Positions 4,605-21,620 of a stretch of 35,010 nt of DNA are shown here, piece by piece. Position 1 is the stretch's first letter. Every line of letters begins with the position of its first letter. The stretch is taken from IMG/VR virus record IMGVR_UViG_3300045988_019110, positions 1 to 35,010 of that record. The stretch is one strand, 5' to 3'. A model generated the notes under the pieces. That model did no database searches. It was not told the origin of the DNA and saw only the letters and a program-made list of their open reading frames with translations. This stretch comes from a virus. Its lineage: Duplodnaviria > Heunggongvirae > Uroviricota > Caudoviricetes. The position numbers and the translations under genes are program-made.

Positions 4605-7144
4605 TCATCCACTACACCCGCAACGAAGACGGGACGTTCTCGCAAAAACGGCATAACGACTCGCCGCTGAATTTCGTCGTAAACCATATCCCTGATGGTG
4701 TACCGTTTCGCGTTTTCCTCGAAGAGATAGGAGAGGATAACGACGTAACAGAAGATTTCGACGCATTAAAACAGGATGCCGTTTTCCACATCCTGGAGGG
4801 GGCTGGGGGCGGCGCTATCAAGGGTGTGATGAAAGTGTTCAGTATAATCCTTAAACCGCTGGCTAAATTACTCACACCGTCAACAAAGGGCGCGTCTAAC
4901 AATCTCGCTAACCAGCAAGCGGACTCGCCGAATAACAGCCTGACAGACCGAAATAACAAGGCCCGACCATACGAGCGAACTTATGACATCTGCGGCCGGG
5001 TGCAGACGATACCTAATAACCTTATGACCACCTATAAGGTTTTCGATAATGCAGGACGTATCATCGAGTACGGCTACTATGACGCCGGGCGTGGGTATCT
5101 TGACGTTAAAGCAGAAGACATCACCGACGGTGACACCAAAGTCCAGGAGATAACCGGAACTTCTGTAGCGGTGTATGCCCCGTACACATCACCCAATAAC
5201 ACAAGCTCTCCGCAACTTCTTGTTGGCGAACCTATCGACCAAAAGTTGTATATCACCATCGCATCTAATGAAGTAGACGGTGCGGTACTGAAAGCTCAAA
5301 ACGGCATAAGAGTAAACCCAAGCGATACCGGAGAGATATCACTGCAAGGGACAACAGGCATTGTACGTGATGCAACCGGGGATTCCGCGTTTACAGAAAT
5401 TCTGTCAGTTGGCGATGTGGCCGTTTTCAATCTCATTCTGGTAAAAGATGTTGCCAACGTAAGCGGCAATTATACAGTTACTTACGTCGATGATTTCGAG
5501 GTTAGAGTCGCTGTAGGGGGTATGCTCACCGAATGGCAGAAGTTGCCGTCTGGTTTTACCCAGCTGACACAGGGCAATGAGGCGTGGATTTCACCCTCAA
5601 ACACATATGATAAGTCATTGACGGACTGGACGACGCTAAACCGTCTGCCGGTAGAGCGCATCGTTGCTAATATCGCCGCCGCTAATGGCATGTATAAAGA
5701 CAATGGCAGTAAACTAAGGGCCTCTGTCACCGTCGAGTTGCAGTACCAGTTACTAGATGCAACCGGAACGCCTTACGGGCCTGTATATAGTAAGCAGGGC
5801 ACCATCTCAGGGCGCTCTTCTGATTACACCGGTGTGACAATCTACGCGGACCTGCCATCGGCGTCTAATGTTCGTGTACGGGCGCGCAGGGTGACAAATC
5901 TTGACCTTGCTTTCGAGGGTACAGTCGTAGACGAGGTTTCGTATATAAACCTGTACGGGCAAATACGCGACACCACACCTAACTACGGCAACAGAACCAC
6001 CGTACATTCCGCGCGTAAACAGACGCCCAGGGCCGCAGAGGTTAAACAGCCACAATTGCGAATGGTGGTAACTGAGATGGCGTACAAGTACCTCGGTAAC
6101 GGTGTTTTTGACTCTGTAAGAACGCCAAACACGCAAGCGGTACAGTCGCTGATTCGTCTCGCCCGTGACCCGGATGTCGGCGCGTTGAATCTGACAACGG
6201 CGAATATGGATAAACTGTTAGCAGTACAGAGCGAAATTGAGAGTTATTTCGGTAGTGCATCCGCAGGAGAATTTTGCTATACGTTTGATGATTACAAAAC
6301 TACGATGCAGGACATAGTAACTACGATAGCGGAAGCAATTTTCTGTACCCCATATCGAAGAGGTGCAGATATTCTTCTGGACTTTGAACGCCCGCGGATT
6401 GGCCCCGAGATGGTATTCACCCATCGCAGCAAAACTACCGCTACGGAGAAGTGGACGCGCACGTTTAACGACGCTCAGGTATACGACAGCCTTAAGTTTT
6501 CCTACATCGACCCAGATACTAACGTCAAAGAGACTATTAGCATTCCAGCTGAAGGTGGTGTTAATACCGAAACGTATGACTCCAAAGGTATACGTAATTA
6601 TCGTCAGGCGTACTGGGCGGCGTACCGTCGGTATCAGAAGAACCTGTTGAAGAAAGTCACGGTATCCTTTACGGCGACAGAAGAAGGGATTTTTGCGATG
6701 CCCGGGCGCGCGGTAAGTGTGGTGAAAGGTTCTCGCATGGCCCCTCAGGATGGCTATATAATCGCCGTTAACGGCCTGACGCTTACGCTATCGCAACCAG
6801 TTACATTTACCCACGGAGATGACCATTCACTCATCCTTAAGAAGCGTGATGGCGGTGTTCAGAGTGTTGCAGTTGTGCCAGGAAGTCACGACCGTGAAGT
6901 GATTATGTTATCCGCGCCGCAGGAGGCAATTTACACAGGGAATAGCGCACTAAAAACTGAGTTTTCATTCGGCAACGAAGCAAGGCATAATGCTCAGATG
7001 ATTCTTGTTTCTACAGTTGACCCGGCAGACGACAGAACAGTTAAGATTACCGGGATTAACTATGAAGCAGATTTCTATAAATACGACGGCGTCGCACCTT
7101 TCGGTAGCGGTTTCTCCGACGGATTCAGCAACGGTTTTAGTTAA
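4595..7144 (+). CDS. tail tip / host specificity protein with gpI-like N-terminal region
   Basis: 849-aa ORF after the gpK-like gene; N-terminal Gly-rich hydrophobic stretch (EGAGGGAIKGVMKVFSIIL) resembles lambda gpI; track start is TTG. Confidence 0.5.
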   Translation: MAIVIHYTRNEDGTFSQKRHNDSPLNFVVNHIPDGVPFRVFLEEIGEDNDVTEDFDALKQDAVFHILEGAGGGAIKGVMKVFSIILKPLAKLLTPSTKGASNNLANQQADSPNNSLTDRNNKARPYERTYDICGRVQTIPNNLMTTYKVFDNAGRIIEYGYYDAGRGYLDVKAEDITDGDTKVQEITGTSVAVYAPYTSPNNTSSPQLLVGEPIDQKLYITIASNEVDGAVLKAQNGIRVNPSDTGEISLQGTTGIVRDATGDSAFTEILSVGDVAVFNLILVKDVANVSGNYTVTYVDDFEVRVAVGGMLTEWQKLPSGFTQLTQGNEAWISPSNTYDKSLTDWTTLNRLPVERIVANIAAANGMYKDNGSKLRASVTVELQYQLLDATGTPYGPVYSKQGTISGRSSDYTGVTIYADLPSASNVRVRARRVTNLDLAFEGTVVDEVSYINLYGQIRDTTPNYGNRTTVHSARKQTPRAAEVKQPQLRMVVTEMAYKYLGNGVFDSVRTPNTQAVQSLIRLARDPDVGALNLTTANMDKLLAVQSEIESYFGSASAGEFCYTFDDYKTTMQDIVTTIAEAIFCTPYRRGADILLDFERPRIGPEMVFTHRSKTTATEKWTRTFNDAQVYDSLKFSYIDPDTNVKETISIPAEGGVNTETYDSKGIRNYRQAYWAAYRRYQKNLLKKVTVSFTATEEGIFAMPGRAVSVVKGSRMAPQDGYIIAVNGLTLTLSQPVTFTHGDDHSLILKKRDGGVQSVAVVPGSHDREVIMLSAPQEAIYTGNSALKTEFSFGNEARHNAQMILVSTVDPADDRTVKITGINYEADFYKYDGVAPFGSGFSDGFSNGFS

Positions 7145-9058: not shown

Positions 9059-9196
9059 CTACTCTTCTGATAACTTCTCCAGTACAAACGCCAGTTGCGC
9101 ATTAGCGGCGTCTCTTTGCTGCCGTAGTCGTAGAACCTCCTCTTCGAGTTCCTTGATACGTTTTTGCAATGCCGGAATCGGGGCTGTGATGTTCAT
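9059..9196 (-). CDS. small coiled-coil protein (45 aa), last gene of leftward operon
   Basis: ATG overlaps the SNF2 helicase stop (ATGA coupling); heptad-like MNITAPIPALQKRIKELEEEVLRLRQQRD; not in ORF track (<60 aa). Confidence 0.3.
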   Translation of the reverse strand: MNITAPIPALQKRIKELEEEVLRLRQQRDAANAQLAFVLEKLSEE

Positions 9197-10617
9197 TTCT
9201 TACTCCTACGTTTCATATACTCAAGGAGGATATCCTGCACCTGTTTTTTCTCGTCGGTGCGTGAAGTGACAACAGAATCTAACGTATCTTTAGCAATAAT
9301 CTTGTAGATAAAAACGGGGCGATTGTGCCCAGATTGCTTTTGTCGTGTTGGACCTATGCGCTCTATAACCTGCAAATAGTGCTCAAGGTTCCATCCCTGA
9401 CTGAAAAAAGCCATATGATGGCCGCCGTCTTGTAGCGATATACCATGCCCGGCTGACGCAGGATGCACGCATAATATTTCGATTTCACCGCGGTTCCACG
9501 CTTCCATCTGCTTATTACCCTTCGCACCTTTGGCAAACGCCTGGGCCTGCGGGAATCGCTTAAGGATGCGCTCCAGTTCGTGCTTAAACTGATAGGCCAC
9601 CAGTAACGGCGCTCCCTGTAACTCCTCGACAATGGACTCCAGAGCATCCAGTTTCGTGTCGTGTACTTTCTCCCAGTCTTTCGTTGCTTCTCCGTCTGGC
9701 CCTGACACATACACGGCACCAGATGCAATCTGCAAACACTTCGACGTCTTCGCTGCCGCGTTAGCCGCTTCAACTTCCCCGCTTTCCAGTTCTGCGAATA
9801 ATTTCTCCTCCATATCGATGTACGCCTGACGTGCTTTCTTAGGCAGGTCGATTTCAACCGGCACGATAATAGGCGCCTCGCAACCGAACCACTCGGCGGC
9901 GTCAATCGTGAGACTAACGTCCTTCATCTTCTGGTGGATTTCAGTATCCGCACCCGGGCGCGCATGATATTCACGCGCCATCGCCGACTTACCTTTCTGT
10001 ACCGAGTTAAACCAGCGGTCTGTGAATGCCGTGTACGATGAACCGAGGCGCTCGCCCGCGTCGATAAACCAGTTCTGACCCCACAGGTCTTTGAGGCCGT
10101 TGGGTGATGGTGTGCCTGTCAGGTTAATGAACCGCTTAACTTTACCAAATGCCACTTTGCTAAGCGCCTTTGCCCGCTTGCTTCCACCAGAACGGCTGCG
10201 GAATGACTTAAGCTTCGTGCTTTCATCGGCAACGATAACGGTAAAAGGCCAGTCATCTTTGCCGTAGTAGTCAATCAGCCATTCAATAACTTCGTAGTTT
10301 GTGCACACCACGTTAGCGTCAGACTCCAGCGCCGCGATGCGGCGCTTCTCTGAACCGGTCGCATCAACGACACGAAGACAAGGAAATTGCCATTTCTCTT
10401 GTTCTGCTGGCCATGTGCCAGACGCAACACGCAACGGGGCGAGAATTAACACGCGGTCGTCATCATTAAGTTGGCCGTTGCGGAACAGTCTGTTTAGAAC
10501 CCACATTGTCGCGGAACTTTTGCCCGCGCCCATCGAAGCCCAAATATTACAGCGCGGATGTCGCAGCATGAACGAAGTCATGAGCTTCTGGTACTCGCGC
10601 CTTTGAAACTTAGACAT
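9193..10617 (-). CDS. SNF2/DEAD-like superfamily 2 helicase
   Basis: Walker A-like ASMGAGKSS and DExx-box VIVADESTK; start re-set to ATG at 10617 (GAGG Shine-Dalgarno), since track N-terminal extension overlaps the upstream gene. Confidence 0.7.
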   Translation of the reverse strand: MSKFQRREYQKLMTSFMLRHPRCNIWASMGAGKSSATMWVLNRLFRNGQLNDDDRVLILAPLRVASGTWPAEQEKWQFPCLRVVDATGSEKRRIAALESDANVVCTNYEVIEWLIDYYGKDDWPFTVIVADESTKLKSFRSRSGGSKRAKALSKVAFGKVKRFINLTGTPSPNGLKDLWGQNWFIDAGERLGSSYTAFTDRWFNSVQKGKSAMAREYHARPGADTEIHQKMKDVSLTIDAAEWFGCEAPIIVPVEIDLPKKARQAYIDMEEKLFAELESGEVEAANAAAKTSKCLQIASGAVYVSGPDGEATKDWEKVHDTKLDALESIVEELQGAPLLVAYQFKHELERILKRFPQAQAFAKGAKGNKQMEAWNRGEIEILCVHPASAGHGISLQDGGHHMAFFSQGWNLEHYLQVIERIGPTRQKQSGHNRPVFIYKIIAKDTLDSVVTSRTDEKKQVQDILLEYMKRRSKK

Positions 10618-11293
10618 GATTGGCCTCGTAAACTGCTTTTGCGAAACCTCGTGGGGTGAGGCTGCGGATTGTCTTTGTTCTGGCGCTCTTTCCGCCGAGT
10701 TTAGCCCAACCAGGGTTATCCCCGCTATCAGCGGCAACTACAGCAACGTCGGGCATAACAAACCCATTGCCTACCCATAGGCACGTCTTTTTAACATAGG
10801 CATCCCGCGCTGGGATAACATCCGGAAACATTGGATGCGTGTCGTCTTCCGGTAGATAGCCGCCGTATTCGTGCGGGTTGAACACATAATCAGGCTTACG
10901 CCATAAAGATGAAAGAACACTAACCGGGTTCTCAATCATATAGGGTACGTTATACTTTTTAGCCAGACGTGCCGCCACTTTGCATGTAATCACGGCCTCT
11001 ACCTGAAACGTCGGGTTATTCTTGCGCTTAGCTTCGAAATGGCGCGACCCACTAACGGCTAAATCCGTGCATGGGGGGAACGAAAAAATAATATCTGGCG
11101 CAACCTCGAAGTCGAATTTATTATCAATCCACGCGTTTATATAGTGGATGTTCTCGTGTTCAACCCTCGCGCCCAATCGTGCGTAGTCTCCGTGGTCCGC
11201 GCCATCATAGTTGAAACAATAGCAAGTATGGCCTGCTTCTGCCCACGGCCGGGCCATAAGGCCCGAACCGTCAAACAATGACCAGACAATCAT
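10610..11293 (-). CDS. compact DNA cytosine-C5 methyltransferase-like protein
   Basis: 227 aa with motif I-like LFDGSGL, motif IV-like FPPCT (catalytic Pro-Cys), motif VI-like IENPV and GNGFV near C-terminus; ATG overlaps upstream stop. Confidence 0.5.
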   Translation of the reverse strand: MIVWSLFDGSGLMARPWAEAGHTCYCFNYDGADHGDYARLGARVEHENIHYINAWIDNKFDFEVAPDIIFSFPPCTDLAVSGSRHFEAKRKNNPTFQVEAVITCKVAARLAKKYNVPYMIENPVSVLSSLWRKPDYVFNPHEYGGYLPEDDTHPMFPDVIPARDAYVKKTCLWVGNGFVMPDVAVVAADSGDNPGWAKLGGKSARTKTIRSLTPRGFAKAVYEANHV

Positions 11294-11777: not shown

Positions 11778-12095
11778 TTATAATTCCTTATATTGTTGGG
11801 GTATGTGCTTACTATAATAGCTCGCTATTAGGGTGTCAACCTGTTTAACCGAACCAACGACAAAAACATTCGCGCCACGTTTTCGGAATCTTTCATGTTC
11901 ACGTAACTGGTGCGGGTCTGGCTTCGTGTTTTCGTCTTTCTTCACCTCGACGAACCAGACGATGCCGCCAGGGAGAATTACCAGCAGGTCGGGAGCGCCG
12001 GAACGTCCTTCGTAAGACAGCTTACGAACGAGGCCCCCCAGGGCCTCGAATCGCTCTTTTGCGTATTTCTGTATTTTGCCCTCAGGCGTACTCAT
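11778..12095 (-). CDS. VRR-NUC domain nuclease
   Basis: 105 aa; PD-(D/E)XK-type motif GAPDLLVILPGGIVWFVEVKK typical of VRR-NUC. Confidence 0.6.
   Translation of the reverse strand: MSTPEGKIQKYAKERFEALGGLVRKLSYEGRSGAPDLLVILPGGIVWFVEVKKDENTKPDPHQLREHERFRKRGANVFVVGSVKQVDTLIASYYSKHIPQQYKEL
11811..11839 (-). promoter_or_regulatory. sigma70-type promoter P1 (TTGACA-17-TATAGT) with palindrome in spacer
   Basis: On - strand: TTGACA (11839-11834), 17-nt spacer containing AATAGCgaGCTATT, TATAGT (11816-11811); overlaps the 3' end of the VRR-NUC ORF. Confidence 0.5.
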
Positions 12096-12297: not shown

Positions 12298-15200
12298 TTA
12301 CTTGGCATAACGTTTTAACTCCTGACCTTCTGCTACAAGAGGAAACCCCTCGGCCCATTCCGGTAATTCACACATCAACCGCTCGAGTTCAGCGACATTG
12401 TATTCCGGCGCATCTGGAGTTTCGCACACCAGTTCATCGTGTACCGAGAGTACGATAGGATACCCACCACGCTCAACGTTAATCATCGCATAGGCAAGTA
12501 AATCACGGCACAGCGCCTGAACAATGTTTTCGCAGGCCTTGCCGCCGTGTGTGTACAGGGTAGTCCATTGGCGGGTTAACTGGTTTTCGCCTTGATACTT
12601 GATTCGCACATTCGTGTTTACCCGTCCGTCTTCATCTGTTTCCTTTGTCACACTAACCCCGATTCCCGGATAGGAAAGGATACGACCTGACGGCAACTCC
12701 ATACACAACCACCAACCCGGAACCTTCCTGCCGGATGAATCAAATTCTACAGTGCGCCATATGCGGATAGCCCTTTCCCCGTTCCTGCGCAAGTGCGCTC
12801 CCGCCCAAAATTCACGACCAGGGTTACGAACAGCGGCTAAAATTCCGTCTTTAAGGTCGCGCCAGAAAGCTACTGTTTCCGGGTGTGACTCGCGCCACAT
12901 ACGCTTGATCGCGTCGCATGTGCGCCACACTTTCTTGTCCAGAATATACGACGGTCGGTCGTCCTTTTCGCCCGGATGCGGCGGTCGCTTTGCTTCCTGG
13001 ATACGCGCCCACTCATAACCGCGTGCGGTAGCTGCCCATATGTGGTCAGGGAATGTACCGTCCATTGTTTTAGCCATCTCAATAAGGTCGAGGCCTAAGT
13101 TTTTGGCGAACGTAACGAACGCTCCGACACCCCCCTCATAGCCTAGGCCAAGCTCGCAGTTATGCGCCACAAGAAAGCCAGAGTCTGAGGCTATAAGAAA
13201 ACGGTTGCCGTCTTCCACATCAATCAGGTCGTACACCGGCTCGCAGTAGGTTAATTTCCCGCTCAAGTTCAGCAATGCGGGCAACGGCTGCATCGTACTT
13301 TCGTTGAAGCTCGGGTATTTGCCGTCTGTTTCGGCAGTTTTCAGAACGGCTGACAAACCGAATGTTTCCAGGTTCGTAGTTACCGTCTGTGTCGATTCTA
13401 TCCATTTCGAGGTTCGGGTCATCCCAGCCTTCCAGAGTTTGAACATATCTAAGAAAAGACCTTTTATCAGTCCTCCACTGGTCGAATACCGTGATGCCTC
13501 TTGCCCCGTAGTTTTTATAACCCTTATCCCTGGGGCTTGTTGTTCGCGTGATCGCCGCTGACAGCCGGTTGAGTAATCGCGTTCTGTGCGCATCATCCGG
13601 CATTGCGTCTTCGTAGCAGAAATACTGTTTACGATATTTTTTTGTTGCTTCAAGGGCGCAGCGGTTGCATTGAGTGGTTTTACCAGCTCTGACGTTGTCA
13701 TAATAGACCCGCCCCGGCATCTCTCCGCAATCACATTGGACGAGTAGTTGTCTTTGGCCTTGTCGTTTTGGTAACTCGCGCAGGATAACCAAGCGTCCAT
13801 ACCTCTCTCCAGGGCGAGGCCCATCATATATCTGTTTGAAGCGAGTTGCTTTGCCTGCTTCCAGGAATGCGCCAAGATTTTGTGGTCTTCGGTCATTAGC
13901 ACCCCGTCCACATTTATTACCGGTTTCCACCCCATAAGGTGCGCGCCTTTTGTATTCACCCATTTTTCACCGCTCCATACTTTATCTGTTGATGTAACCG
14001 CCATAATATCCTTAAATCCGCCATTGGTCAAAACTTGGGTATGGCGGTGAAGGCAGGCCTTACCAATCTGGCGTAAATCTTTACGTTCCTTCTTAATGTC
14101 GTCTGGGTCCATTCCGAACATCTTGCCCGCGGTTACACAATAAATGTCCAGTCCGGCACGGAACGTATCGAGCGCGGTTTCTTCACCTGCCAGCCACGCA
14201 AGTCCGCGGCCTTCAACGTTAGAGTAATCGGCAACAACAAACTTATGTCCTGCTTCCGGTATGATGCAGCTGCGAACCGTCGATGCCGTTAGCTTGGCTA
14301 CGTCAAATCGGCGGTGAGCACGACCCTTAAGTAACGCTGAAATGCCTTTATCCAGTTCATCATCATGATAGTACCCGCGGGCCAAGTTCTGCGGCTGGAA
14401 GCCTTTACCTGCCCATCGCAGAGTACGTTTTGCCCCACCGTACTGCAGGCAACCGCGACGGCGGTCGTCCGACGAGCGGCCTAACAGCAATGGGTTGTAT
14501 TTCGTGGACGCTGTTGACGCGGCACCGAGGCGCATTTCGATAATCGTACGGGCATCGTCCGGTAAATCATCGTCCGCCAACAGGTCATTCAGCGTCGACT
14601 TCTGTGCGTTGTGGATGCGGTGTGCGGGGGCAAGTTCACGCAGAATAGGTAGAAAGTCTTTACCAGTAAGTGAGCCGCCGTATTTGCGTTGGGCTTCTTC
14701 CTGTAACTGCGCTTTGTGTTTCTCCACAGCTTCAATCGCGGCTTCCGCCAGTGCAACGTCAACCTTAAACCCACGGTCATTGATTAACTGGTCCAGCTCC
14801 AGTACACGGTCCTCGAACTCTGAGTTACCCCACCGCGGCAGTTTATGGAAGACTTCACGCATCGCAGTGATGTCGCTCACGGCGTACTTGATGAACAGTG
14901 CCCACTCGTCCGGGTGTGTTTCGGCGGTGTAACGGCGGATTTTGTAGTTCTTCGGCGTCGGTTTAGAAAAACGCTTAATCAGCGCCTTGCCGCGTTTATC
15001 TTTCGCGTTGTCCGCGGATACACCCAGCACTTCACATAGCGCATCAAGCGAACCTGGTAGCGCGTGACGAAACGCCCAAATCATCGTATCAATGGTGTTG
15101 CTTACAGGAATGTCAAAGCCCCAGCAGTGCTTCATGATGAGCCTGTCGAACATTGAGCCGTTGTGCCACACCATCTTGATGCGGCTGTTTGGCTTAACCA

Positions 15201-15396
15201 GGCGGCGCAAGGCGCGATGCAAATCCCCCGGCATGTCGCTGCCGTCGGTGCAGTCCCATACCTGCACAGGCTCGTCGTCAAAAGCATAGGTACAGATAAG
15301 CACTTCTGTAGTCGGATGCTCGGCGTAAGCGTAGGAGCCGACTTTCTTTAAATTGGCTTCGGAGAATGTTTCAAAGTCTAAGAACAGGTAACTCAT
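12298..15396 (-). CDS. DNA polymerase, family A, with 3'-5' exonuclease domain; intein-containing
   Basis: 1032-aa ORF; N-terminal exo motif LFLDFETFS; motif A VVADYSNVEGRGLAW; motif B split as RQIGKA / CELGLGYEGG by a ~299-aa insertion with intein hallmarks. Confidence 0.85.
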   Translation of the reverse strand: MSYLFLDFETFSEANLKKVGSYAYAEHPTTEVLICTYAFDDEPVQVWDCTDGSDMPGDLHRALRRLVKPNSRIKMVWHNGSMFDRLIMKHCWGFDIPVSNTIDTMIWAFRHALPGSLDALCEVLGVSADNAKDKRGKALIKRFSKPTPKNYKIRRYTAETHPDEWALFIKYAVSDITAMREVFHKLPRWGNSEFEDRVLELDQLINDRGFKVDVALAEAAIEAVEKHKAQLQEEAQRKYGGSLTGKDFLPILRELAPAHRIHNAQKSTLNDLLADDDLPDDARTIIEMRLGAASTASTKYNPLLLGRSSDDRRRGCLQYGGAKRTLRWAGKGFQPQNLARGYYHDDELDKGISALLKGRAHRRFDVAKLTASTVRSCIIPEAGHKFVVADYSNVEGRGLAWLAGEETALDTFRAGLDIYCVTAGKMFGMDPDDIKKERKDLRQIGKACLHRHTQVLTNGGFKDIMAVTSTDKVWSGEKWVNTKGAHLMGWKPVINVDGVLMTEDHKILAHSWKQAKQLASNRYMMGLALERGMDAWLSCASYQNDKAKDNYSSNVIAERCRGGSIMTTSELVKPLNATAAPLKQQKNIVNSISATKTQCRMMRTERDYSTGCQRRSREQQAPGIRVIKTTGQEASRYSTSGGLIKGLFLDMFKLWKAGMTRTSKWIESTQTVTTNLETFGLSAVLKTAETDGKYPSFNESTMQPLPALLNLSGKLTYCEPVYDLIDVEDGNRFLIASDSGFLVAHNCELGLGYEGGVGAFVTFAKNLGLDLIEMAKTMDGTFPDHIWAATARGYEWARIQEAKRPPHPGEKDDRPSYILDKKVWRTCDAIKRMWRESHPETVAFWRDLKDGILAAVRNPGREFWAGAHLRRNGERAIRIWRTVEFDSSGRKVPGWWLCMELPSGRILSYPGIGVSVTKETDEDGRVNTNVRIKYQGENQLTRQWTTLYTHGGKACENIVQALCRDLLAYAMINVERGGYPIVLSVHDELVCETPDAPEYNVAELERLMCELPEWAEGFPLVAEGQELKRYAK
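13159..14055 (-). other. intein inserted in PolA motif B
   Basis: Pol-frame residues 448-746: N-terminal CLHRHTQVLT (block A), LMTEDHKIL (block B), C-terminal VYDLIDVEDGNRFLIA...FLVAHN followed by +1 Cys (blocks F/G). Confidence 0.65.
13220..13963 (-). CDS. HNH endonuclease-like ORF nested inside the intein in an alternate reading frame
   Basis: 247-aa ORF, different frame from the polymerase; ATG with GGAG 9 nt upstream; motifs GRLVIL...CDCGEM...CNRC and YKNYGARGITVFDQW...DRIDTDGNYEPGNIRFVSRSEN. Confidence 0.5.
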   Translation of the reverse strand: MGEYKRRAPYGVETGNKCGRGANDRRPQNLGAFLEAGKATRFKQIYDGPRPGERYGRLVILRELPKRQGQRQLLVQCDCGEMPGRVYYDNVRAGKTTQCNRCALEATKKYRKQYFCYEDAMPDDAHRTRLLNRLSAAITRTTSPRDKGYKNYGARGITVFDQWRTDKRSFLRYVQTLEGWDDPNLEMDRIDTDGNYEPGNIRFVSRSENCRNRRQIPELQRKYDAAVARIAELEREINLLRAGVRPD

Positions 15397-15455: not shown

Positions 15456-16091
15456 TCAACGGCGACGACGTTCGCGGCGAGGTGCTTCATCTTCTTCTTC
15501 GTCTTCGTCTTCCAGGTCGTCGGTGCTTGCTACTACACTGGAACCCCCGAAGCGTTTACCTTCGCCCGCATACTTGATGCCGAGGATGGTAGCGCACAAG
15601 TTTTTCCATTCTTTGTGCCACCATAGCTCTACAGATACGTTTGCTACACACCCGCTGTATACCTGCTCGCCTTCTACTTCCTGCCCGTCGATGTTGAAAT
15701 CAGGCTCGGTTTGTTTTTCGCCTTTAGCTGAGGTCATAATTACAGGTTGGCGGTTGTTAGTAGCGCGGAAATACAGACCTTCTTCAAAATCTTCAATCGG
15801 ATTGTCACGCATTGCCAGGTCACGGACGCAGCATTTGTCTGCGTGGTGGTCTACGCCGTAGTTGGCCTTCATCCATTTTTCAGCAGCAGCTGTCCCGATT
15901 GCCTCTGTTACAACTTCCAGAGCGGTGTCGTAAAGCGCGTCGATTTGAGGGTGGTCAGGCTGCATAAGAACCGTAACCTGATATTTGCCCTTAATCAGTT
16001 TACCTGTTTTCTTGTCCTCAGAGTCGGCAGCACGTTCAAATACGTTAACCCATGCAGTGTTTACTTTACGCAGATTCAGTTTCAGTCCCAC
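15456..16091 (-). CDS. putative ssDNA-binding protein (DUF2815-like) with acidic C-terminal region
   Basis: 211 aa, GTG start with GAGGG RBS; acidic tail DDLEDEDEEEDE; sits between Cas4-like exonuclease and PolA, a position typical of phage SSB in this module type. Confidence 0.4.
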   Translation of the reverse strand: MGLKLNLRKVNTAWVNVFERAADSEDKKTGKLIKGKYQVTVLMQPDHPQIDALYDTALEVVTEAIGTAAAEKWMKANYGVDHHADKCCVRDLAMRDNPIEDFEEGLYFRATNNRQPVIMTSAKGEKQTEPDFNIDGQEVEGEQVYSGCVANVSVELWWHKEWKNLCATILGIKYAGEGKRFGGSSVVASTDDLEDEDEEEDEAPRRERRRR

Positions 16092-16154
16092 AGTTCAGCC
16101 CTCATTAAGTTTAGATTTTAAGTTTACTCCGGGAACCGCCCGGCCAGTGATTTA

Positions 16155-16183
16155 ACTATAATAGCTCGCTATTCGGTAGTCAA
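16155..16183 (-). promoter_or_regulatory. sigma70-type promoter P2 (TTGACT-17-TATAGT) with palindrome in spacer
   Basis: On - strand: TTGACT, 17-nt spacer containing GAATAGcgagCTATT, TATAGT; near-identical to P1. Confidence 0.5.
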
Positions 16184-16187
16184 CACT

Positions 16188-17444
16188 TTATTCTAAATCT
16201 TCTTCACTAACCTGATTCCACTCAGGACGTTTGTCGTCTGCCGTTGCTACGCATGGCGCGCCCGGCTTACGGGTAATAAAGTCTTTCAGTTCTTCTTCCG
16301 GTATGACTTTAATAGCTTCGGTCGGTGTCATCAGCACTTCTTTAGTCAGCTTATCGCCGTAGAGTTCTGTTACTTTCTCCGTGTCTTTCCACGCACGGTT
16401 GCCCATTTTACCTTCAACCAGCTTGTACCCAGGAACTTTCTTACCAGAATGCAACGCGGCGGCCATAGCTTTCTCAACCTTGTCGATGTGCTGGCGCAAC
16501 AACGGCAACTTCTCATACTCAGCGACGAGTTGCTCCGGCGTAAGTTCAAGCGCGAAGTCGTCTTCAAGTTCTTCCGCCAGTACAGAATTAACGGTTCTTG
16601 TACGCGCGGCGCACTGTTCTGAGAACCGGCACCACTGACAACCATCGACAGACGGCTTGAAGTCCGACGCTTTCAGGTTCTTCTTGCCGCGGGAATAAGC
16701 ATCAAGGGCCAACAGCGCCCGTTTCTGCGCGAACTTAGCGAACAGTTCCAGACCTTCGACCGAGATGTCCCACTCCGACGCGCCGCCAGCGTACGGCTGG
16801 AAGATTACCAGACGAACAACTTTGATGTTATAACGTCTCTTGAGTCGGCGATAAACACCGAGAGCGTAAAGCATAAGCTGCTTGTTTTCTTTCGCTTCAA
16901 CACGATGCCGTCCTGTTTTCAGGTCGCCGATAATGAGCATGTGCTCGTCGGTGTTAGCCTGTTCCTGAACGGCAACAAGGTCAGCAGTCCCGAACGTCTC
17001 GACGCCTTCGTAACCCGGATGCAATACCTCAGTAAGATTGACGCGCATCTCGAGCTTGGAATAAGTCGCGACATCGATAATCGGTTTGCAGTAGTCGGTG
17101 TACTTTCGCACCTGCTCAATCATGTCGGCCGTAATCAGTACCGCGCCTTTCATCGGGCTGATTAGCGCCTTAATCTGGCCTTTACCCTCATCCAGCACGT
17201 AAGCACCGACTTCACGCTCTAACGGCAACGCGGTTCCTCGAATATAGGCGTTGAGATGGACCTCAGCTATGGTGTGGCACGCGGTCCCCGTAACAGCAGC
17301 TTTACCTGACGTGTTAGGAATATCTTTTTCACAGGCCAGTGATGCACTGCACGTCAGCCACTTTTTAGCGCCTGACGGCGACAGTAAGGCGTGCACATCA
17401 TTATTGCCGCCACGTTCCTTTAAAATCATACCCTGCTCTCCCAC
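16188..17444 (-). CDS. PD-(D/E)XK Cas4/RecB-like exonuclease (DUF2800-like)
   Basis: 418 aa; N-terminal LSPSGAKKWLTC motif and C-terminal Cys cluster CQWCRFSEQC typical of Cas4-like iron-sulfur nucleases. Confidence 0.6.
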   Translation of the reverse strand: MGEQGMILKERGGNNDVHALLSPSGAKKWLTCSASLACEKDIPNTSGKAAVTGTACHTIAEVHLNAYIRGTALPLEREVGAYVLDEGKGQIKALISPMKGAVLITADMIEQVRKYTDYCKPIIDVATYSKLEMRVNLTEVLHPGYEGVETFGTADLVAVQEQANTDEHMLIIGDLKTGRHRVEAKENKQLMLYALGVYRRLKRRYNIKVVRLVIFQPYAGGASEWDISVEGLELFAKFAQKRALLALDAYSRGKKNLKASDFKPSVDGCQWCRFSEQCAARTRTVNSVLAEELEDDFALELTPEQLVAEYEKLPLLRQHIDKVEKAMAAALHSGKKVPGYKLVEGKMGNRAWKDTEKVTELYGDKLTKEVLMTPTEAIKVIPEEELKDFITRKPGAPCVATADDKRPEWNQVSEEDLE

Positions 17445-17698
17445 TGGTCAATTAAATGTCGTGTCTTATGGTCACAATGCATAGCCCAGCCATACATAGA
17501 CTCGAAGACATAAAAGTCAGGTTTGGCGAAAGTCGTGCGCTTAATCTGTGACACGTGACGGCCTATATCTTTAGGCCGCGGTACTTTGCCTAAGTACGCC
17601 ATCTCTTCCATCAGGTGCGCACCGGACGGCGCACGTAACAGCCATAGCGCCTCCGTGTTATCCCGCCTGTCAACGGCGCGGTAGAGTTGGTAAATCAT
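17426..17698 (-). CDS. hypothetical protein
   Basis: 90-aa ORF overlapping the downstream gene start by 19 nt. Confidence 0.35.
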   Translation of the reverse strand: MIYQLYRAVDRRDNTEALWLLRAPSGAHLMEEMAYLGKVPRPKDIGRHVSQIKRTTFAKPDFYVFESMYGWAMHCDHKTRHLIDQWESRV

Positions 17699-17740
17699 AT
17701 TTCCGACCCTCAGTTAAAGCGGCCCGAAGGCCGCCTATAG

Positions 17741-18223
17741 TTATTCTTCTTCGAAATACTTGTTCTTGATTGCCGTCAGGCGTTCCAGGTACTCGGCCAG
17801 GTCTTCGTCTTTAATCGCGGTAATCTTCATCTTCTTACCGGTGAACTCTTCCAGCAGTTCGTCGGAATCATCACACGCGGCATCGCTAGGACCTTCGTTA
17901 ATCGCATCGTCGATAGCCTGAATCTGGCCACGAAGAGACTTGTAATCGACTTCTTCTTTCTCTTCTTCCGGCTCTGGCGTCGGTTCCTCTACTTTAGCTT
18001 TACGCGGCTTGCGTTTTGGCTTCTCTTCTTCCGCCGGTTTGGTGTCAACGATGTCTTCACCTTCGACCGGGATTTCTTTTGTTGTCTCGATTGTTGCGGT
18101 TTGTTCAACGACCCCGGCGACTAATGCAGTTTTTGCAACATTAACTTGTTTTGCACTGTTCGCAGCAATCAGTTCATGTGCAACTACGAAACGTTCCAGT
18201 AATTTTAAAAATTGTTCTAACAT
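17741..18223 (-). CDS. acidic, low-complexity early protein of unknown function
   Basis: 160 aa, Glu/Asp-rich with a short basic KPKRKPRKAK patch; first gene downstream of promoter P3. Confidence 0.45.
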   Translation of the reverse strand: MLEQFLKLLERFVVAHELIAANSAKQVNVAKTALVAGVVEQTATIETTKEIPVEGEDIVDTKPAEEEKPKRKPRKAKVEEPTPEPEEEKEEVDYKSLRGQIQAIDDAINEGPSDAACDDSDELLEEFTGKKMKITAIKDEDLAEYLERLTAIKNKYFEEE

Positions 18224-18254
18224 TTGTTTCTCTCCTCTCGTTTGGTATGGGCTA

Positions 18255-18284
18255 ACTATAATAGCTAACTATTCAGGTTGTCAA
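18255..18284 (-). promoter_or_regulatory. sigma70-type promoter P3 (TTGACA-18-TATAGT) with palindrome in spacer
   Basis: On - strand: TTGACA, spacer containing GAATAGttagCTATT, TATAGT; divergent from the HTH gene at 18349. Confidence 0.5.
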
Positions 18285-18348
18285 TGGGCTTTCCTAAAAT
18301 AATTAATATGGTACTATTCACATATCAACTGACTAAGGAGTAATTGAC

Positions 18349-18564
18349 ATGCAACCATCTGAACTAGGCATCCGTGTAGAGCAACGCCGCAAAGAACTCG
18401 GCATCTCTCAACGCCGTCTGGCGGTCCTGGCTGGCGTTTCCCAGGGCGCGATTAATCAGCTGGCGCTCGGTGTAACTCAGGACGTACGCCCGGCAACACT
18501 GTTCAAGCTGGCGGAAGTGCTGGAAGTAGACGCCAAGTGGCTGGCGTTCGGTGAAGGGGCTTAA
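18349..18564 (+). CDS. XRE-family helix-turn-helix transcriptional regulator (Cro/CI-like)
   Basis: 71 aa; classic HTH GISQRRLAVLAGVSQGAINQL; AGGAG RBS; lone + strand gene between - strand operons. Confidence 0.7.
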   Translation: MQPSELGIRVEQRRKELGISQRRLAVLAGVSQGAINQLALGVTQDVRPATLFKLAEVLEVDAKWLAFGEGA

Positions 18565-18578
18565 GCCCCTTTCTTTTT
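18554..18578 (+). terminator. rho-independent terminator after HTH gene
   Basis: Palindromic GGGGCTTAAGCCCC hairpin overlapping the stop codon, followed by TTTCTTTTT. Confidence 0.5.
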
Positions 18579-18580
18579 AC

Positions 18581-20821
18581 CTATTCTAAATCCTCCTCTG
18601 TCACCACCAGCATTTCATTCGGCTCATATATCGTCTTTGGTCTTAATCTGTCACCCATCTTTTCCGGTATCCGGTAGGTGCCCGGTATAACTTCACCGTT
18701 AACATCGCACCCTAACATCAACTCACCGTCTTTCAGCATCTTCTCGAGATGATGGTTGGTTATGGCGTGGTCGCCCGAATTCGCCACTATCTGCCGTTGT
18801 GTAAAACCTCGTCCGGTGTCGTCTGACTGTTGCAGGTCCTCCAGCGCGGCAAGTATTGATTCCTTACGCCCTTCATCCTTTCCACGTTTTACAGCGTTCT
18901 TTACGTTTTCTTTACCTTCTTTCGTCAGCCCTTCTTCCCGCTCTTTCTCCTCGTCAGTTTTGAACGGCTCGAAACCCCACGGCATCAGCACAAGCGCCTT
19001 GTGCGGCTCAGGCAGGTCCAGGTTTACGATTGTGCCGTATTCCTCTGTGCTACCCAGGAACTCAACCGCACGGTACTCTTTCGGCGGTGGTGCTTCACGG
19101 AACTGTACCGACTCCAGCACCATGCCAACCGTCTTCTGTTGAGGCCCGTGCTTAAATTTAGAGTGGTATACGTTTATCTGACGGTCGGTAGCGCGTTCAA
19201 TTGTCAGTTCCACGTCAACGCCCGCATACAGCGCGCCGCTGCCACGGGCTTTCTTTCCGCCCTTCGGTGTGTGGTGAACAACACCTACCGCGGCTTTAGT
19301 CGCATCACGCACTTCTTTCAGGATGGCGATAACTTTACCCATACCGATTGCCGTTGATGAACTGTTCTCGTCAAACTTATCAATCGTCAGGGCCAGGGTC
19401 TGGTTGAGGGTGTCAAACGCGACCATGCCGATAGGTTCATCGCCAGCGGTTTCACGCATTAACTTAATCAGGTTTTTCAGTTTTCCGACTTCGCCCATGT
19501 CGATGACATGTACATAATCTTTACCTTCCTCTCCGTATTTAGCCGCGAGTGCATCAATACGTGTGCGGGTAGCCGCGCCACCCTCACCGTCGATATAGAA
19601 ATGGTGACAGCGCTGGGTATCCGCCCCTGCGAAGCGATAGCCAGCGGCGCTAAGGTACATCACCCCCAGCGTATAGAATGATTTGTACGTGCCAGATTCT
19701 CCGACGATATCCCAGATACAATCCGACGGCATGTACCCTTCTACGACGAAATCAGCCTTTACCGGTTCTGGTAATTCGTCCTCCTCGAAGTCCTCGTCGT
19801 CTTCCAGGTCGTCCAGGCTGCATGAAACGGATTCACGCGCACCCCATCCGATAGCCTCAGCCACTTCACTAAACGGCAGCCCGGTCGCGTCGCACGCATA
19901 CTTCCACACCTCTTTCGGTGACATGCCTTCGGTTGCCGTAATGTCGGTGTCGTGAATCATGGTTACGTTCGGTGCTTCGTAGCCCTCTCGCGGGAAACAC
20001 AGCAGGAAGTCGTCCGGCCGCGGTGTCGGGTCGCTGTAGTTTTCCGCATGTTCTGGTGTGGCGGGCATCTTAAGGCCGCGAGGTGTCATGACACCGCCGT
20101 ACTCAAAAGCCAGTGCCTCGAACGCGTCTGTAAACGCGGTGCGCAGTTCTTCCGGTATCTGGTAATCCGATGCGCTGCTCACCTCGTAATCCGGGATGCC
20201 TTCCAGTAACTCATCCGGGTCAATCAGGTCGTTGCGACGCGACCAGATAACCTGAGAGCCAACCGGCGGCAGGTACATCGGTTGGGACAGAGTAAACCCG
20301 CTGCGGTCAGCGCCCATGCCTTTGAAGAAGTGCTCCAGCAATCCATGACGAACACGGATGATGTCGCCACCCTCAACAGGACTGGCCAGCGGCATGACGA
20401 CACGAAAGCGCGGAGACTCATCGGTATGGGATGCCGTGGTATATAGGCACATCGCCTGGCGGCTGCGCTTAACCAGGCGCACAGCTTCCTGATACTCTTC
20501 CGGCGTTGCACTGTCGAAGTCCAGATACGCCAGCGACGATTTGCTTACAGACGCATCACAGCGATAGAAGAAGCCTTTACGCGCTTGCTTAAAGTCGCCG
20601 GTTTCCAGGTCTTTTACGGTGCTGTGAGTAGAGTCGCACGCGGCGGTGATATATCCCGGCGCGGTCTTCGGGTTAATCCCGTCTCGGACAGAATCGAGCG
20701 GCTGGATTAACTCTTTCAGGTCGTCCAGTGTTGCCGTGTGTGTAGTTCTGACGTTTATATCCTTTTTCTCTGCTCGCGCGTTGCGGCGTGACCACGAGTA
20801 GGATAAAATTACATCGGACAT
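18581..20821 (-). CDS. primase-helicase (AEP-type primase-polymerase N-terminal domain fused to RecA-like helicase)
   Basis: 746 aa; AEP-like motifs AYLDFD and TTASHTDESPRF; Walker A GESGTYKS and VVHHTPKGG-type helicase motif. Confidence 0.7.
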   Translation of the reverse strand: MSDVILSYSWSRRNARAEKKDINVRTTHTATLDDLKELIQPLDSVRDGINPKTAPGYITAACDSTHSTVKDLETGDFKQARKGFFYRCDASVSKSSLAYLDFDSATPEEYQEAVRLVKRSRQAMCLYTTASHTDESPRFRVVMPLASPVEGGDIIRVRHGLLEHFFKGMGADRSGFTLSQPMYLPPVGSQVIWSRRNDLIDPDELLEGIPDYEVSSASDYQIPEELRTAFTDAFEALAFEYGGVMTPRGLKMPATPEHAENYSDPTPRPDDFLLCFPREGYEAPNVTMIHDTDITATEGMSPKEVWKYACDATGLPFSEVAEAIGWGARESVSCSLDDLEDDEDFEEDELPEPVKADFVVEGYMPSDCIWDIVGESGTYKSFYTLGVMYLSAAGYRFAGADTQRCHHFYIDGEGGAATRTRIDALAAKYGEEGKDYVHVIDMGEVGKLKNLIKLMRETAGDEPIGMVAFDTLNQTLALTIDKFDENSSSTAIGMGKVIAILKEVRDATKAAVGVVHHTPKGGKKARGSGALYAGVDVELTIERATDRQINVYHSKFKHGPQQKTVGMVLESVQFREAPPPKEYRAVEFLGSTEEYGTIVNLDLPEPHKALVLMPWGFEPFKTDEEKEREEGLTKEGKENVKNAVKRGKDEGRKESILAALEDLQQSDDTGRGFTQRQIVANSGDHAITNHHLEKMLKDGELMLGCDVNGEVIPGTYRIPEKMGDRLRPKTIYEPNEMLVVTEEDLE

Positions 20822-20878
20822 ATTATAATTCCTTCAGCAAGTAATTTGGCCTCGGCGCTCTAACGTCGGGGCTTTCTT

Positions 20879-21112
20879 TTATTCCAGGTCTTCTAAAGTA
20901 GCGGTCATTCCGCGAACTTCAGCGACAGCACTATATTTCCCGCCGACATTTTTCACGACACCGGATTTAACCAACACCTTCAATGACCCTTCAATGATGG
21001 CGGAACTATAGTACTTAAAATAACTGCGGCGCAAGTCGATAACACTGCACGACCCTTTTTTACGTGTTAATGAAACGACCGCCGTAAATACGCGTGACTG
21101 GAACTCGGTCAT
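20879..21112 (-). CDS. hypothetical protein
   Basis: 77-aa ORF translationally coupled to the upstream HTH gene; C-terminus LEDLE. Confidence 0.4.
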   Translation of the reverse strand: MTEFQSRVFTAVVSLTRKKGSCSVIDLRRSYFKYYSSAIIEGSLKVLVKSGVVKNVGGKYSAVAEVRGMTATLEDLE

Positions 21113-21279
21113 TTCACGTTCTCCTTAATCCACGCTTCCACTTTCTCCGGGTCAAACGTACCTGGCTGCCGGCGGCCCATAATGCGGGTACAGCAATCAG
21201 GGAACTTCCCGCTCTTTAACCAGTTATTCAGCGTGCGACGAGTAACCCCGATGCGCTCTGCTACTTCATTCTGCGTCAT
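21109..21279 (-). CDS. AlpA-like helix-turn-helix DNA-binding protein
   Basis: Start re-set to ATG at 21279 with GAGGG RBS; MTQNEVAERIGVTRRTLNNWLKSGKFP HTH; candidate TTGATT-17-TATACT promoter upstream. Confidence 0.5.
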   Translation of the reverse strand: MTQNEVAERIGVTRRTLNNWLKSGKFPDCCTRIMGRRQPGTFDPEKVEAWIKENVK

Positions 21280-21620
21280 TCTCAAACCCTCATTATCAGT
21301 TAACAAAATCGAGTATACATTGCGAATAATGGGAAATCAAACATAATCGCACCTATTGACATTATGAAAATCTTCGTTTAAGGTGCTTCTATATCTTAGT
21401 TACTTTGATTCTTGTTCACCTTGTAAACCCCGCCGAAAACGAGCGCCCAACGCGAAGTGTTAGGCGGCAGTTTACTGAACATAAGAATTATCGTAACTTT
21501 CCTTCCTTAATATCTCCGGTTGCCCTGGGCAAGCTCTATTCTCATCGGCAGCATATCTCTTAAGTAACTGATTTTCTTAATGTACCGTAGATTCACAACC
21601 GTAAAAATGTAACCCTTACC

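Follow-up and report, generated by a model that had tools for sequence, protein, structure and literature searches.

A common C-terminal tail in the replication block

The window analysed here is a stretch of 35,010 nucleotides (positions 1 to 35,010 of IMG/VR virus record IMGVR_UViG_3300045988_019110), and our subject is a short acidic peptide, EDLE, with which three proteins of its leftward replication and recombination block end. An initial annotation had reported that three minus-strand open reading frames (ORFs) run through EDLE directly into their stop codons, and exact reading of the three C-termini confirmed this. The Cas4-like nuclease of the DUF2800 family ends in VSEEDLE followed by TAA (…NQVSEEDLE; 16188..16211, minus strand), the primase-helicase in VTEEDLE followed by TAG (…LVVTEEDLE; 18581..18604, minus strand), and a winged-helix protein of 77 amino acids (aa), here called p77, in ATLEDLE followed by TAA (…TATLEDLE; 20879..20902, minus strand), the last with the codons GAC CTG, unlike the other two tails. 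The tails are strongly acidic, and there is no aromatic residue in their last eight positions.

The motif also occurs inside proteins. The acidic segment noted earlier in the SSB, the protein that binds single-stranded DNA (ssDNA), is indeed present and contains a [DE]DLE copy (…ASTDDLEDEDEEEDEAPRRERRRR): STDDLE at residues 189-194 (15510..15527, minus strand) stands directly after the oligonucleotide-binding (OB) domain and is itself followed by an acidic run and then a basic RRERRRR end. A fifth copy, which the initial annotation had missed, lies in the primase-helicase (…CSLDDLEDDEDFEEDE, residues 337-340), where CSLDDLE (residues 334-340; 19802..19822, minus strand) opens the acidic linker between the primase and helicase halves. 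Occurrences of [DE]DLE were counted in the 58 non-overlapping ORFs of the window (10,809 aa) and compared with per-protein shuffles (n = 5000). All five fall in the nuclease, the primase-helicase, p77 and the SSB; the shuffles gave a mean of 0.48, and none of the 5000 reached five, which excludes a chance origin of the shared tails. At the C-terminus itself three copies were observed, against 0.003 expected.

Where structure could be judged, the motif lies outside the folded parts of its carriers. The Pfam DUF2800 model stops at residue 407 of the 418 of the nuclease and leaves the tail past its end. AlphaFold2 (AF2) monomer models were made for p77 and for the SSB, the latter from a 43-sequence alignment. 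The best p77 model has a predicted local distance difference test score (pLDDT) of 80 and shows a winged helix of three helices and two strands at residues 1-62, with the tail (67-75) below 50. The SSB model (pLDDT 84) has a confident OB domain to about residue 180, then a low-confidence linker and a low-confidence end; a short helical turn falls exactly on TDDL (190-193), with flanks below pLDDT 50. The low-confidence segments in p77 and the SSB are probably disordered.

The carriers were identified as follows. The nuclease (16188..17444, probably 16188..17429, minus strand) matches Pfam DUF2800 (E = 4.5e-68) and PDDEXK_1 (E = 1.5e-8), with 230.5 bits against PF10926 (cut-off 21) and 35.3 bits against PF12705. 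Residues C32, C269, C272, C278, D155, D174 and K176 are invariant in a 52-sequence alignment, and the Pfam match, the cysteine cluster and the catalytic-type core together identify it, at the level of its sequence, as a DUF2800 (Cas4-like PD-(D/E)XK) nuclease. The mechanically called ORF begins at a GTG at 17444 and has 418 aa; all close homologues have 413 aa and begin at the ATG at 17429 (MILKERGG…), including a copy that is 100 % identical (P0001), and this ATG rather than the GTG is probably the true start. The primase-helicase (18581..20821, minus strand) has a RepA/AAA_25-type helicase core (Pfam AAA_25, E = 2.4e-17) and is annotated as replicative helicase-primase in related phage records. 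Directly upstream of it lies p77 (20879..21112, minus strand; phrog_5169), which has no Pfam match and belongs to a PHROG family without an assigned function. Its fold gave generic winged-helix matches in the PDB, all weak (the T4 MotA activation domain and the LexA N-terminal domain among them; E above 0.006), and no specific function could be drawn from them. The SSB (15456..16091, minus strand) matches Pfam Enc34_ssDNA-bd (PF10991, E = 2e-11), and its modelled fold matches 4KLK, 5ODL, 5ODJ and 4JG2 (Foldseek, E = 2e-9 to 2e-6); the Pfam match and the predicted OB fold assign it to the DUF2815 or Enc34 type, which is like T7 gp2.5.

The region 16000-21400 of the window matches 447 phage records at 80-95 % nucleotide identity, nearly all of them from Guernseyvirinae siphophages (Escherichia Kagunavirus, Salmonella Jerseyvirus) with genomes near 42-45 kb, and by this similarity the window is a Kagunavirus-like siphophage of the Guernseyvirinae. 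The tail-carrying genes share their leftward block with an SNF2 helicase (9193..10737), two small ORFs listed between the nuclease and a rightward helix-turn-helix (HTH) repressor-like gene (18349..18564), an excisionase-like HTH protein (21109..21306) and the family-A DNA polymerase PolA (12298..15396, minus strand), which is the sole large protein of the module that never bears the tail. A GC-rich hairpin, GAAGGGGCTTAAGCCCCTTTC, at 18553..18573, is flanked by T-runs on either side; it sits between the primase-helicase gene and the HTH-repressor gene, which are convergent, and is probably a bidirectional terminator. PolA has a 299-aa insertion within polymerase motif B (13159..14055, minus strand; residues 448-746, …RQIGKA|CLHRH … VAHN|CELGLGYEGG). 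The insertion starts with Cys and ends with His-Asn followed by Cys, the classic intein signature, and it is missing from close relatives, whose flanks are 95-97 % identical; no Pfam intein or homing-endonuclease domain was found in it at E below 0.001.

Tails in related and distant phages

Conservation in homologues, the check that the initial annotation had proposed, was examined in the 120 best database matches for the nuclease and for the primase-helicase. The EEDLE end is present in 116/120 nucleases and 115/120 primase-helicases, and it is kept even by primase-helicases that are only about 62 % identical in their N-terminal half. Of the primase-helicases, 111/120 also retain the internal C[ST]L[DE]DLE, with an acidic run of varying length behind it. 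In 43 SSB homologues (44-96 % identity) D192 and L193 are invariant amid an otherwise variable charged tail, of consensus …FGGAGETA[TND][DE][DN]DL[GDSE]DD…. Jerseyvirus SE2, a Salmonella phage, has …VTEDDLEA, …TTEGDLE and …ATPEDLE on the three proteins; tails of Serratia phage Tsm2 read …SDVDLA and …YDDLE, and those of the Escherichia phage JL1, a Dhillonvirus, …TDEDLSNE and …TDDDLKD. The p77 slot is mosaic among Kagunaviruses (loci L004-L031): it holds p77, a distant homologue of 91 or 106 aa (32-34 % identical to p77, still ending …DLE), or unrelated, tail-less proteins of 96, 149 or 70 aa.

Three further observations were made on these relatives. The primase half of the primase-helicase has, on sequence comparison, been exchanged as a unit, because many Kagunavirus proteins match the query at about 91 % identity in its C-terminal 58 % alone, and at about 62 % overall (N-terminal half, 19800..20821); the junction lies near the internal CSLDDLE and the acidic linker. 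The 160-aa protein at 17741..18223 (minus strand; '13.88 kDa late protein', phrog_3127) has a conserved acidic-aromatic C-terminus of its own, …NKYFEEE here and in Jerseyvirus, …KYYEEE in Tsm2 and …TYFELED in JL1, as well as an internal DEDLAE or DEDLE, and may bear a second type of docking tail. In JL1 a protein of the tail-assembly region (locus L002, 28474..29091) ends in …TEDLNE, like the replication tails …DEDLSNE and …DDDLKD of the same phage, a resemblance that may be coincidence.

For a wider view, relatives of DUF2800 were sought among 1.8 billion representative proteins, and 11,719 were found. In the 20 closest clusters the end reads [ST]-D-x-D-L plus 0-3 residues, and remoter relatives have a conserved D[KP]RP, a short spacer and an acidic-aromatic motif of DDFEDL type, many of them ending D-L-[ILVAF]. 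A locus search with the 52-sequence nuclease alignment found no stretch conserved enough, and individual phage records and contigs were used instead. Gene neighbourhoods were examined in 18 phage lineages and in four metagenomic contigs with the nuclease, SSB and PolA module; the contigs were picked by nuclease tails not previously seen in context, and contig L049 is too short to reach the SSB.

The tails differ between lineages and match among the proteins of one genome. Where Guernseyvirinae share DLE, Yersinia phage YeP6 has …ETESAESLI on the nuclease and …EGADAESLI on the SSB. The Chi-like phage SPN19 has …PDEWEDEV on the primase, …WDDEDDDEV on the nuclease, …DEDWEDEV on the SSB, …GEEDDV on a 135-aa protein and …VWDDEE on the SNF2 helicase. 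In Klebsiella phage SAKp15 the tails are …DDDDEV, …DEDDDV and …SEEDDV. Pseudomonas phage PspYZU01 has …DDEDGLI on the SSB and on a 240-aa protein, …LQQLI on the nuclease and …LEDLI on the SNF2 helicase, and Staphylococcus phage SMSAP5 has …DDFDKL, …DDEDFL and …LEDLI. Five proteins of Aeromonas phage BUCT551 carry one type (primase …DDEEI, 118-aa protein …NDDDI, nuclease …DDDEI, SSB …DDDEI, SNF2 helicase …EDDEI); Rhizobium phage X2_30 has …DDDI, …DDEI and …DDDDI, and Streptococcus phage Javan3 has …EDDFLD on the primase and …DDDFLN on the SSB. The same holds for metagenomic contigs: L053 pairs …LSDLF on the nuclease with …ADDLF on the SSB, L050 has …SDDEI on the SSB, …DEDEI on an RdgC homologue (4953..5891) and …GEDI on a 140-aa protein, and L052 has …DDLL and …DLPL. 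PolA bears no such tail in any lineage examined.

The layout around the motif is regular, with D[KP]RP, 5-10 residues and the motif in the nuclease, and FGG, 3-8 residues and the motif in the SSB. Nuclease and SSB tails of the same phage mirror each other, as DDFxDL in most lineages, AWDxED in Chi-like phages, EFA[NG]L in Caulobacter phage RW and Paenibacillus phage Lena, and xDDLE in Guernseyvirinae. Because of this mirroring across lineages, EDLE reads, on the sequences compared, as the local, aromatic-free form of an old motif (DDFxDL) common to these nucleases and SSBs. In permutation tests nuclease tails resembled their own-genome neighbours more than the proteins of other genomes (P = 2e-4 to 4e-4, 18 lineages) and were closer to cognate than to non-cognate SSB tails (P ~1e-3, 20 lineages). 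Tail type tracks the phage lineage and not the host: phages of Salmonella and E. coli use DLE (Jersey, Kaguna), DEV (Chi) or DF (T7).

The SSB ends with the shared tail in most other lineages, and in Guernseyvirinae it has the motif internally. The Guernseyvirinae SSB (15456..15500) ends in …APRRERRRR, with long alternating KR/DE repeats in relatives, and the SNF2 helicase of this clade (9193..9240) ends in …YMKRRSKK; the counterparts of these two proteins in Chi-like, Aeromonas and Pseudomonas phages instead end with the acidic tail of their lineage.

Peptide, receptor and rival explanations

The initial annotation had allowed for a cause at the DNA level. On such a reading the YTRGAATAR string around the stop would serve regulation or recombination (as a terminator, part of a promoter, a module-boundary linker or a gene-conversion tract), with the identical peptide a by-product. 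The stop regions of the nuclease, primase-helicase and p77 genes read GAAGAAGATTTAGAATAA, GAGGAGGATTTAGAATAG and TTAGAAGACCTGGAATAA, respectively. The string is enriched in the window (7 occurrences versus 1.7 expected). Its placement in non-coding context near promoters, as described earlier, is only loosely right: three of the seven are the tails themselves, the other four (32, 17056, 34846 and 34877) are scattered, and the strong promoters at 16155-16183 and 18255-18284 hold only near-matches (CCGAATAG, CTGAATAG). A sigma-70-like promoter does follow the nuclease stop and a bidirectional terminator hairpin the primase-helicase stop; p77 is followed by another hairpin, so that the downstream context differs at each of the three sites. 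In 30 related IMG/VR loci and in the phages SE2 (Salmonella), Tsm2 (Serratia) and JL1 (Escherichia), synonymous changes affect the codons of the tail (GAA/GAG, GAT/GAC, TTA/TTG/CTG/CTT) and all three stop codons occur, while the peptide stays the same. In the window itself p77 uses GAC CTG against GAT TTA in the other tails, and no stop codon goes with the in-frame internal copies of the SSB and of the linker in the primase-helicase. In some genomes the nuclease tail and the primase-helicase tail agree at up to 15/15 nucleotides over the EEDLE codons; concerted DNA evolution between the two was nevertheless not found, as identity was 13.30/15 nucleotides within genomes and 13.27 across genomes (P = 0.58), and gene conversion between them was rejected on the same figures. 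Because codons and stop codons vary synonymously while the peptide stays, the comparison of sequences places selection on the tail peptide and not on the DNA, and a DNA-level origin of the shared tail is thereby refuted. A separate DNA element was seen near these promoters: a 22-nucleotide sequence, GAATAG-NN-AGCTATTATAGTTA, occurs in three minus-strand copies (11809..11830, 16153..16174 and 18253..18274; 0 expected by chance), holds a -10 hexamer TATAGT and a small palindrome (ATAGC..GCTAT), and in two copies lies in the strong sigma-70-like promoters upstream of the SSB gene and of the gene for the 160-aa protein. It may be a phage-specific promoter and operator, possibly for the HTH protein at 18349..18564.

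A peptide under selection could still serve something other than a shared partner. Charged ends might simply be favoured for stability against tail-specific proteases, with their identity coincidental; the tails are strongly acidic, and work by Parsell, Silber and Sauer in 1990 reportedly found that charged C-terminal residues protect from C-terminus-directed degradation in E. coli. Protection from proteolysis leaves several features unexplained: that the Leu is invariant and a Ser or Thr comes before it, that there are internal copies, that only replication proteins have the motif (0 of about 50 other ORFs), and that tails co-vary within genomes. It is therefore a very improbable cause. Alternatively each acidic tail could fold onto the DNA-binding surface of its own protein and tune DNA binding, with no shared receptor and with the likeness between tails due to common mimicry of ssDNA. 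Every carrier is a DNA-binding protein (nuclease, helicase, SSB or winged-helix protein), AF2 places a local structured turn on the SSB motif, and removal of the tail from the Enc34 SSB alters its DNA discrimination (PMC5686142), where the T7 gp2.5 tail is also cited as competing with ssDNA for its own groove. However, a PD-(D/E)XK nuclease, a RecA-type hexameric helicase, an OB fold and a winged helix bind DNA through unrelated sites. Mimics that arose independently and act in cis should thus not arrive at identical end residues in one genome, nor shift jointly from lineage to lineage (DLE, DEV, DEI, GLI, ESLI, DLF). We regard this as unlikely for the set of carriers as a whole, although for the SSB itself mimicry in cis and docking are not exclusive. 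Finally, the tails might imitate a host motif such as the C-terminal tip of bacterial SSB, …DFDDDIPF, and so recruit or sequester host replication and repair proteins. The wider motif DDFxDL resembles that tip. The Guernseyvirinae form lacks the Pro-Phe tip, which is essential for recognition of the SSB C-terminal tail (SSB-Ct); tail type follows phage lineage, with DLE, DEV or DF in the same Salmonella and E. coli hosts, and similar …LI tails recur across Pseudomonas, Yersinia and Staphylococcus phages. Docking on a host factor is thus distinctly improbable, even though one report describes phage proteins that exploit the host SSB tail (PMC6393309).

We consider it probable, on the sequence comparisons above, that EDLE is a shared docking peptide for a phage-encoded receptor, namely the ssDNA groove of the SSB and/or PolA, and that the system is a broader variant of the T7 tail system. 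The initial annotation had suggested a common docking peptide like the T7 gp4 and gp2.5 tails, and conservation in homologues, selection at the peptide level, the SSB motif and the co-variation between proteins all speak in favour of it; that the tails bind, and that their receptor is PolA and/or the SSB, we infer. A single co-evolving, phage-encoded receptor surface appears to be the simplest explanation, because unrelated proteins share a peptide that changes in concert between lineages. The motif can be written roughly as [ST]-x-[DE]-D-L-(0 to 3 residues)-COOH, and would act from flexible acidic tails and linkers of the nuclease, SSB, PolA and primase-helicase module. It would be carried by the nuclease, the primase-helicase and p77 at their ends, and within the chain by the gp2.5-type SSB and by the linker of the primase-helicase. 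These otherwise unrelated proteins would dock on one phage-encoded surface, in turn or in competition. Such docking would bring the nuclease, helicase and p77 onto SSB-coated ssDNA or onto the polymerase, and would help SSB to be handed off or displaced.

By analogy, two candidates for the receptor are the most likely, alone or together: the groove in which the gp2.5-type SSB binds ssDNA, and a basic patch of the family-A polymerase. Crystals of Enc34 ORF6, of two other DUF2815 proteins and of T7 gp2.5 show acidic C-termini lying in the concave ssDNA-binding sheet of neighbouring molecules, and the gp2.5 tail, as the Enc34 paper cites it, competes with ssDNA for the same surface (PMC5686142). 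In T7 the gp4 and gp2.5 tails bind to gp5 at basic patches, the front one (K587/K589/R590/R591) among them (PMC8472574, PMC12339929).

Several observations weigh against this docking proposal. EDLE has no aromatic residue and ends in Glu, unlike the paradigm of T7 and SSB-Ct, and the internal copies in the SSB and the primase-helicase linker imply that a free C-terminus is not strictly needed. The basic RRERRRR end of the Guernseyvirinae SSB has no T7 counterpart. The Arg-rich segment of PolA, HLRRNGERAIRIWR (residues 868-881; 12754..12795), aligns with the T7 front patch K587-R591 in what is a weak, low-confidence alignment. On sequence grounds p77 is an accessory, dispensable protein, because many Kagunaviruses have unrelated tail-less proteins in its slot. 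In Caulobacter phage RW, Bacteroides phage BK687P4 and contig L051 the nuclease and the SSB share the upstream motif only and not the terminal residues, and the permutation tests cover about 20 lineages that are not fully independent and use crude tail-similarity scores.

A more far-reaching form of the docking proposal, which we put forward tentatively, is that the module of DUF2800, DUF2815, PolA and primase-helicase is organised as a whole by a lineage-specific 'tail code', one co-evolving SSB-like tail plugging into a single hub (PolA or the SSB groove). Each phage might then have up to five carriers, drawn from the primase-helicase, the nuclease, the SSB, the SNF2 helicase and small accessory proteins (p77, RdgC). 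The module itself occurs in siphophages and prophages by the thousand, in Gram-negative as well as Gram-positive hosts. Under such a code the last few residues of an ORF would tell whether it belongs to the replisome or recombinosome, and the tails would be incompatibility barriers between co-infecting phages. If docking is real, it would offer a first way to understand in functional terms how the DUF2800 nuclease connects with a gp2.5-type SSB or annealase and with the replisome, and it would provide a cheap sequence rule by which hypothetical phage ORFs could be assigned to the replisome. The peptide and its receptor would also form a defined pair, open to mutation or swapping in easily grown E. 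coli and Salmonella phages, and so a way into replisome assembly and recombination hand-off.

Comparison with known systems

No earlier description of shared tails in this module was found in the searchable literature. A conserved duf2800-gp2.5-polA module has already been noted and DUF2815/gp2.5 proteins have been classed as single-strand annealing proteins (PMC8093625). Phage nucleases coupled to an adjacently encoded ssDNA-binding or annealing protein are familiar from lambda Exo/Red-beta and RecE/RecT, and the coupling proposed here is of that kind. In lambda it runs through the folded C-terminal domain of Red-beta and not through a shared linear tail, and no motif shared with a helicase is known there.

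Enc34 ORF6 is a DUF2815 protein of the same family as the SSB here (PF10991; Foldseek 5ODL, 5ODJ), and its tail-in-groove contacts make the groove a candidate receptor for the identical nuclease and primase-helicase tails (PMC5686142). Enc34 and the Chi-like phages differ in ending with …W[DE]DEV and not …DLE, and the account given of the Enc34 SSB makes no mention of the same tail on the nuclease, primase or helicase of those phages (PMC5686142).

Bacterial SSB-Ct (…DDDIPF) is alike in being an acidic disordered tail in which a short amphipathic motif serves as a docking handle in replication, recombination and repair, and the wider motif of the module, DDFxDL, resembles DFDDDIPF. The EDLE tail is not the SSB-Ct hub motif, because it has no Pro-Phe tip and because the SSB here is of the gp2.5/Enc34 type, monomeric or dimeric and not homotetrameric. 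The logic also differs: in bacteria one tail serves many receptors, whereas here there are many carriers, which implies one or few receptors.

The closest likeness is to phage T7, where shared acidic tails that tether the helicase and the SSB to the polymerase are textbook knowledge, treated as a T7 peculiarity of two proteins. In both systems unrelated replisome proteins, a helicase among them, end in the same short acidic peptide; the T7 tails were confirmed as …EDGDF on gp2.5 and …NDTDF on gp4, against …EEDLE here. Both have a gp2.5/Enc34-type OB-fold SSB and a tail-less family-A polymerase, and in PolA a basic segment stands, by a weak alignment, at the position of the front basic patch KWKRR. 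The defining C-terminal Phe anchor of T7 is absent here, where the hydrophobic anchor is the Leu at -2 and the last residue is Glu; in distant lineages an F or W does occur in the upstream motif, or the last residue is I, V, L or F. The SSB here differs in bearing STDDLE internally, with an invariant D-L, followed by the acidic run and the basic end. The carriers differ as well: among them are a Cas4-like nuclease and a small winged-helix protein, which are not known to carry the tail in T7, and other lineages of this module share the tail on up to five proteins, including an SNF2 helicase and RdgC. The proposal thus extends the T7 tail logic to a different and far more widespread replication and recombination module, which makes it a generalisation and not a new principle; what is new relative to T7 is a different motif, the additional carriers (the Cas4-like nuclease and the winged-helix protein here, the SNF2 helicase and RdgC elsewhere) and a clear co-variation of the tails across lineages.

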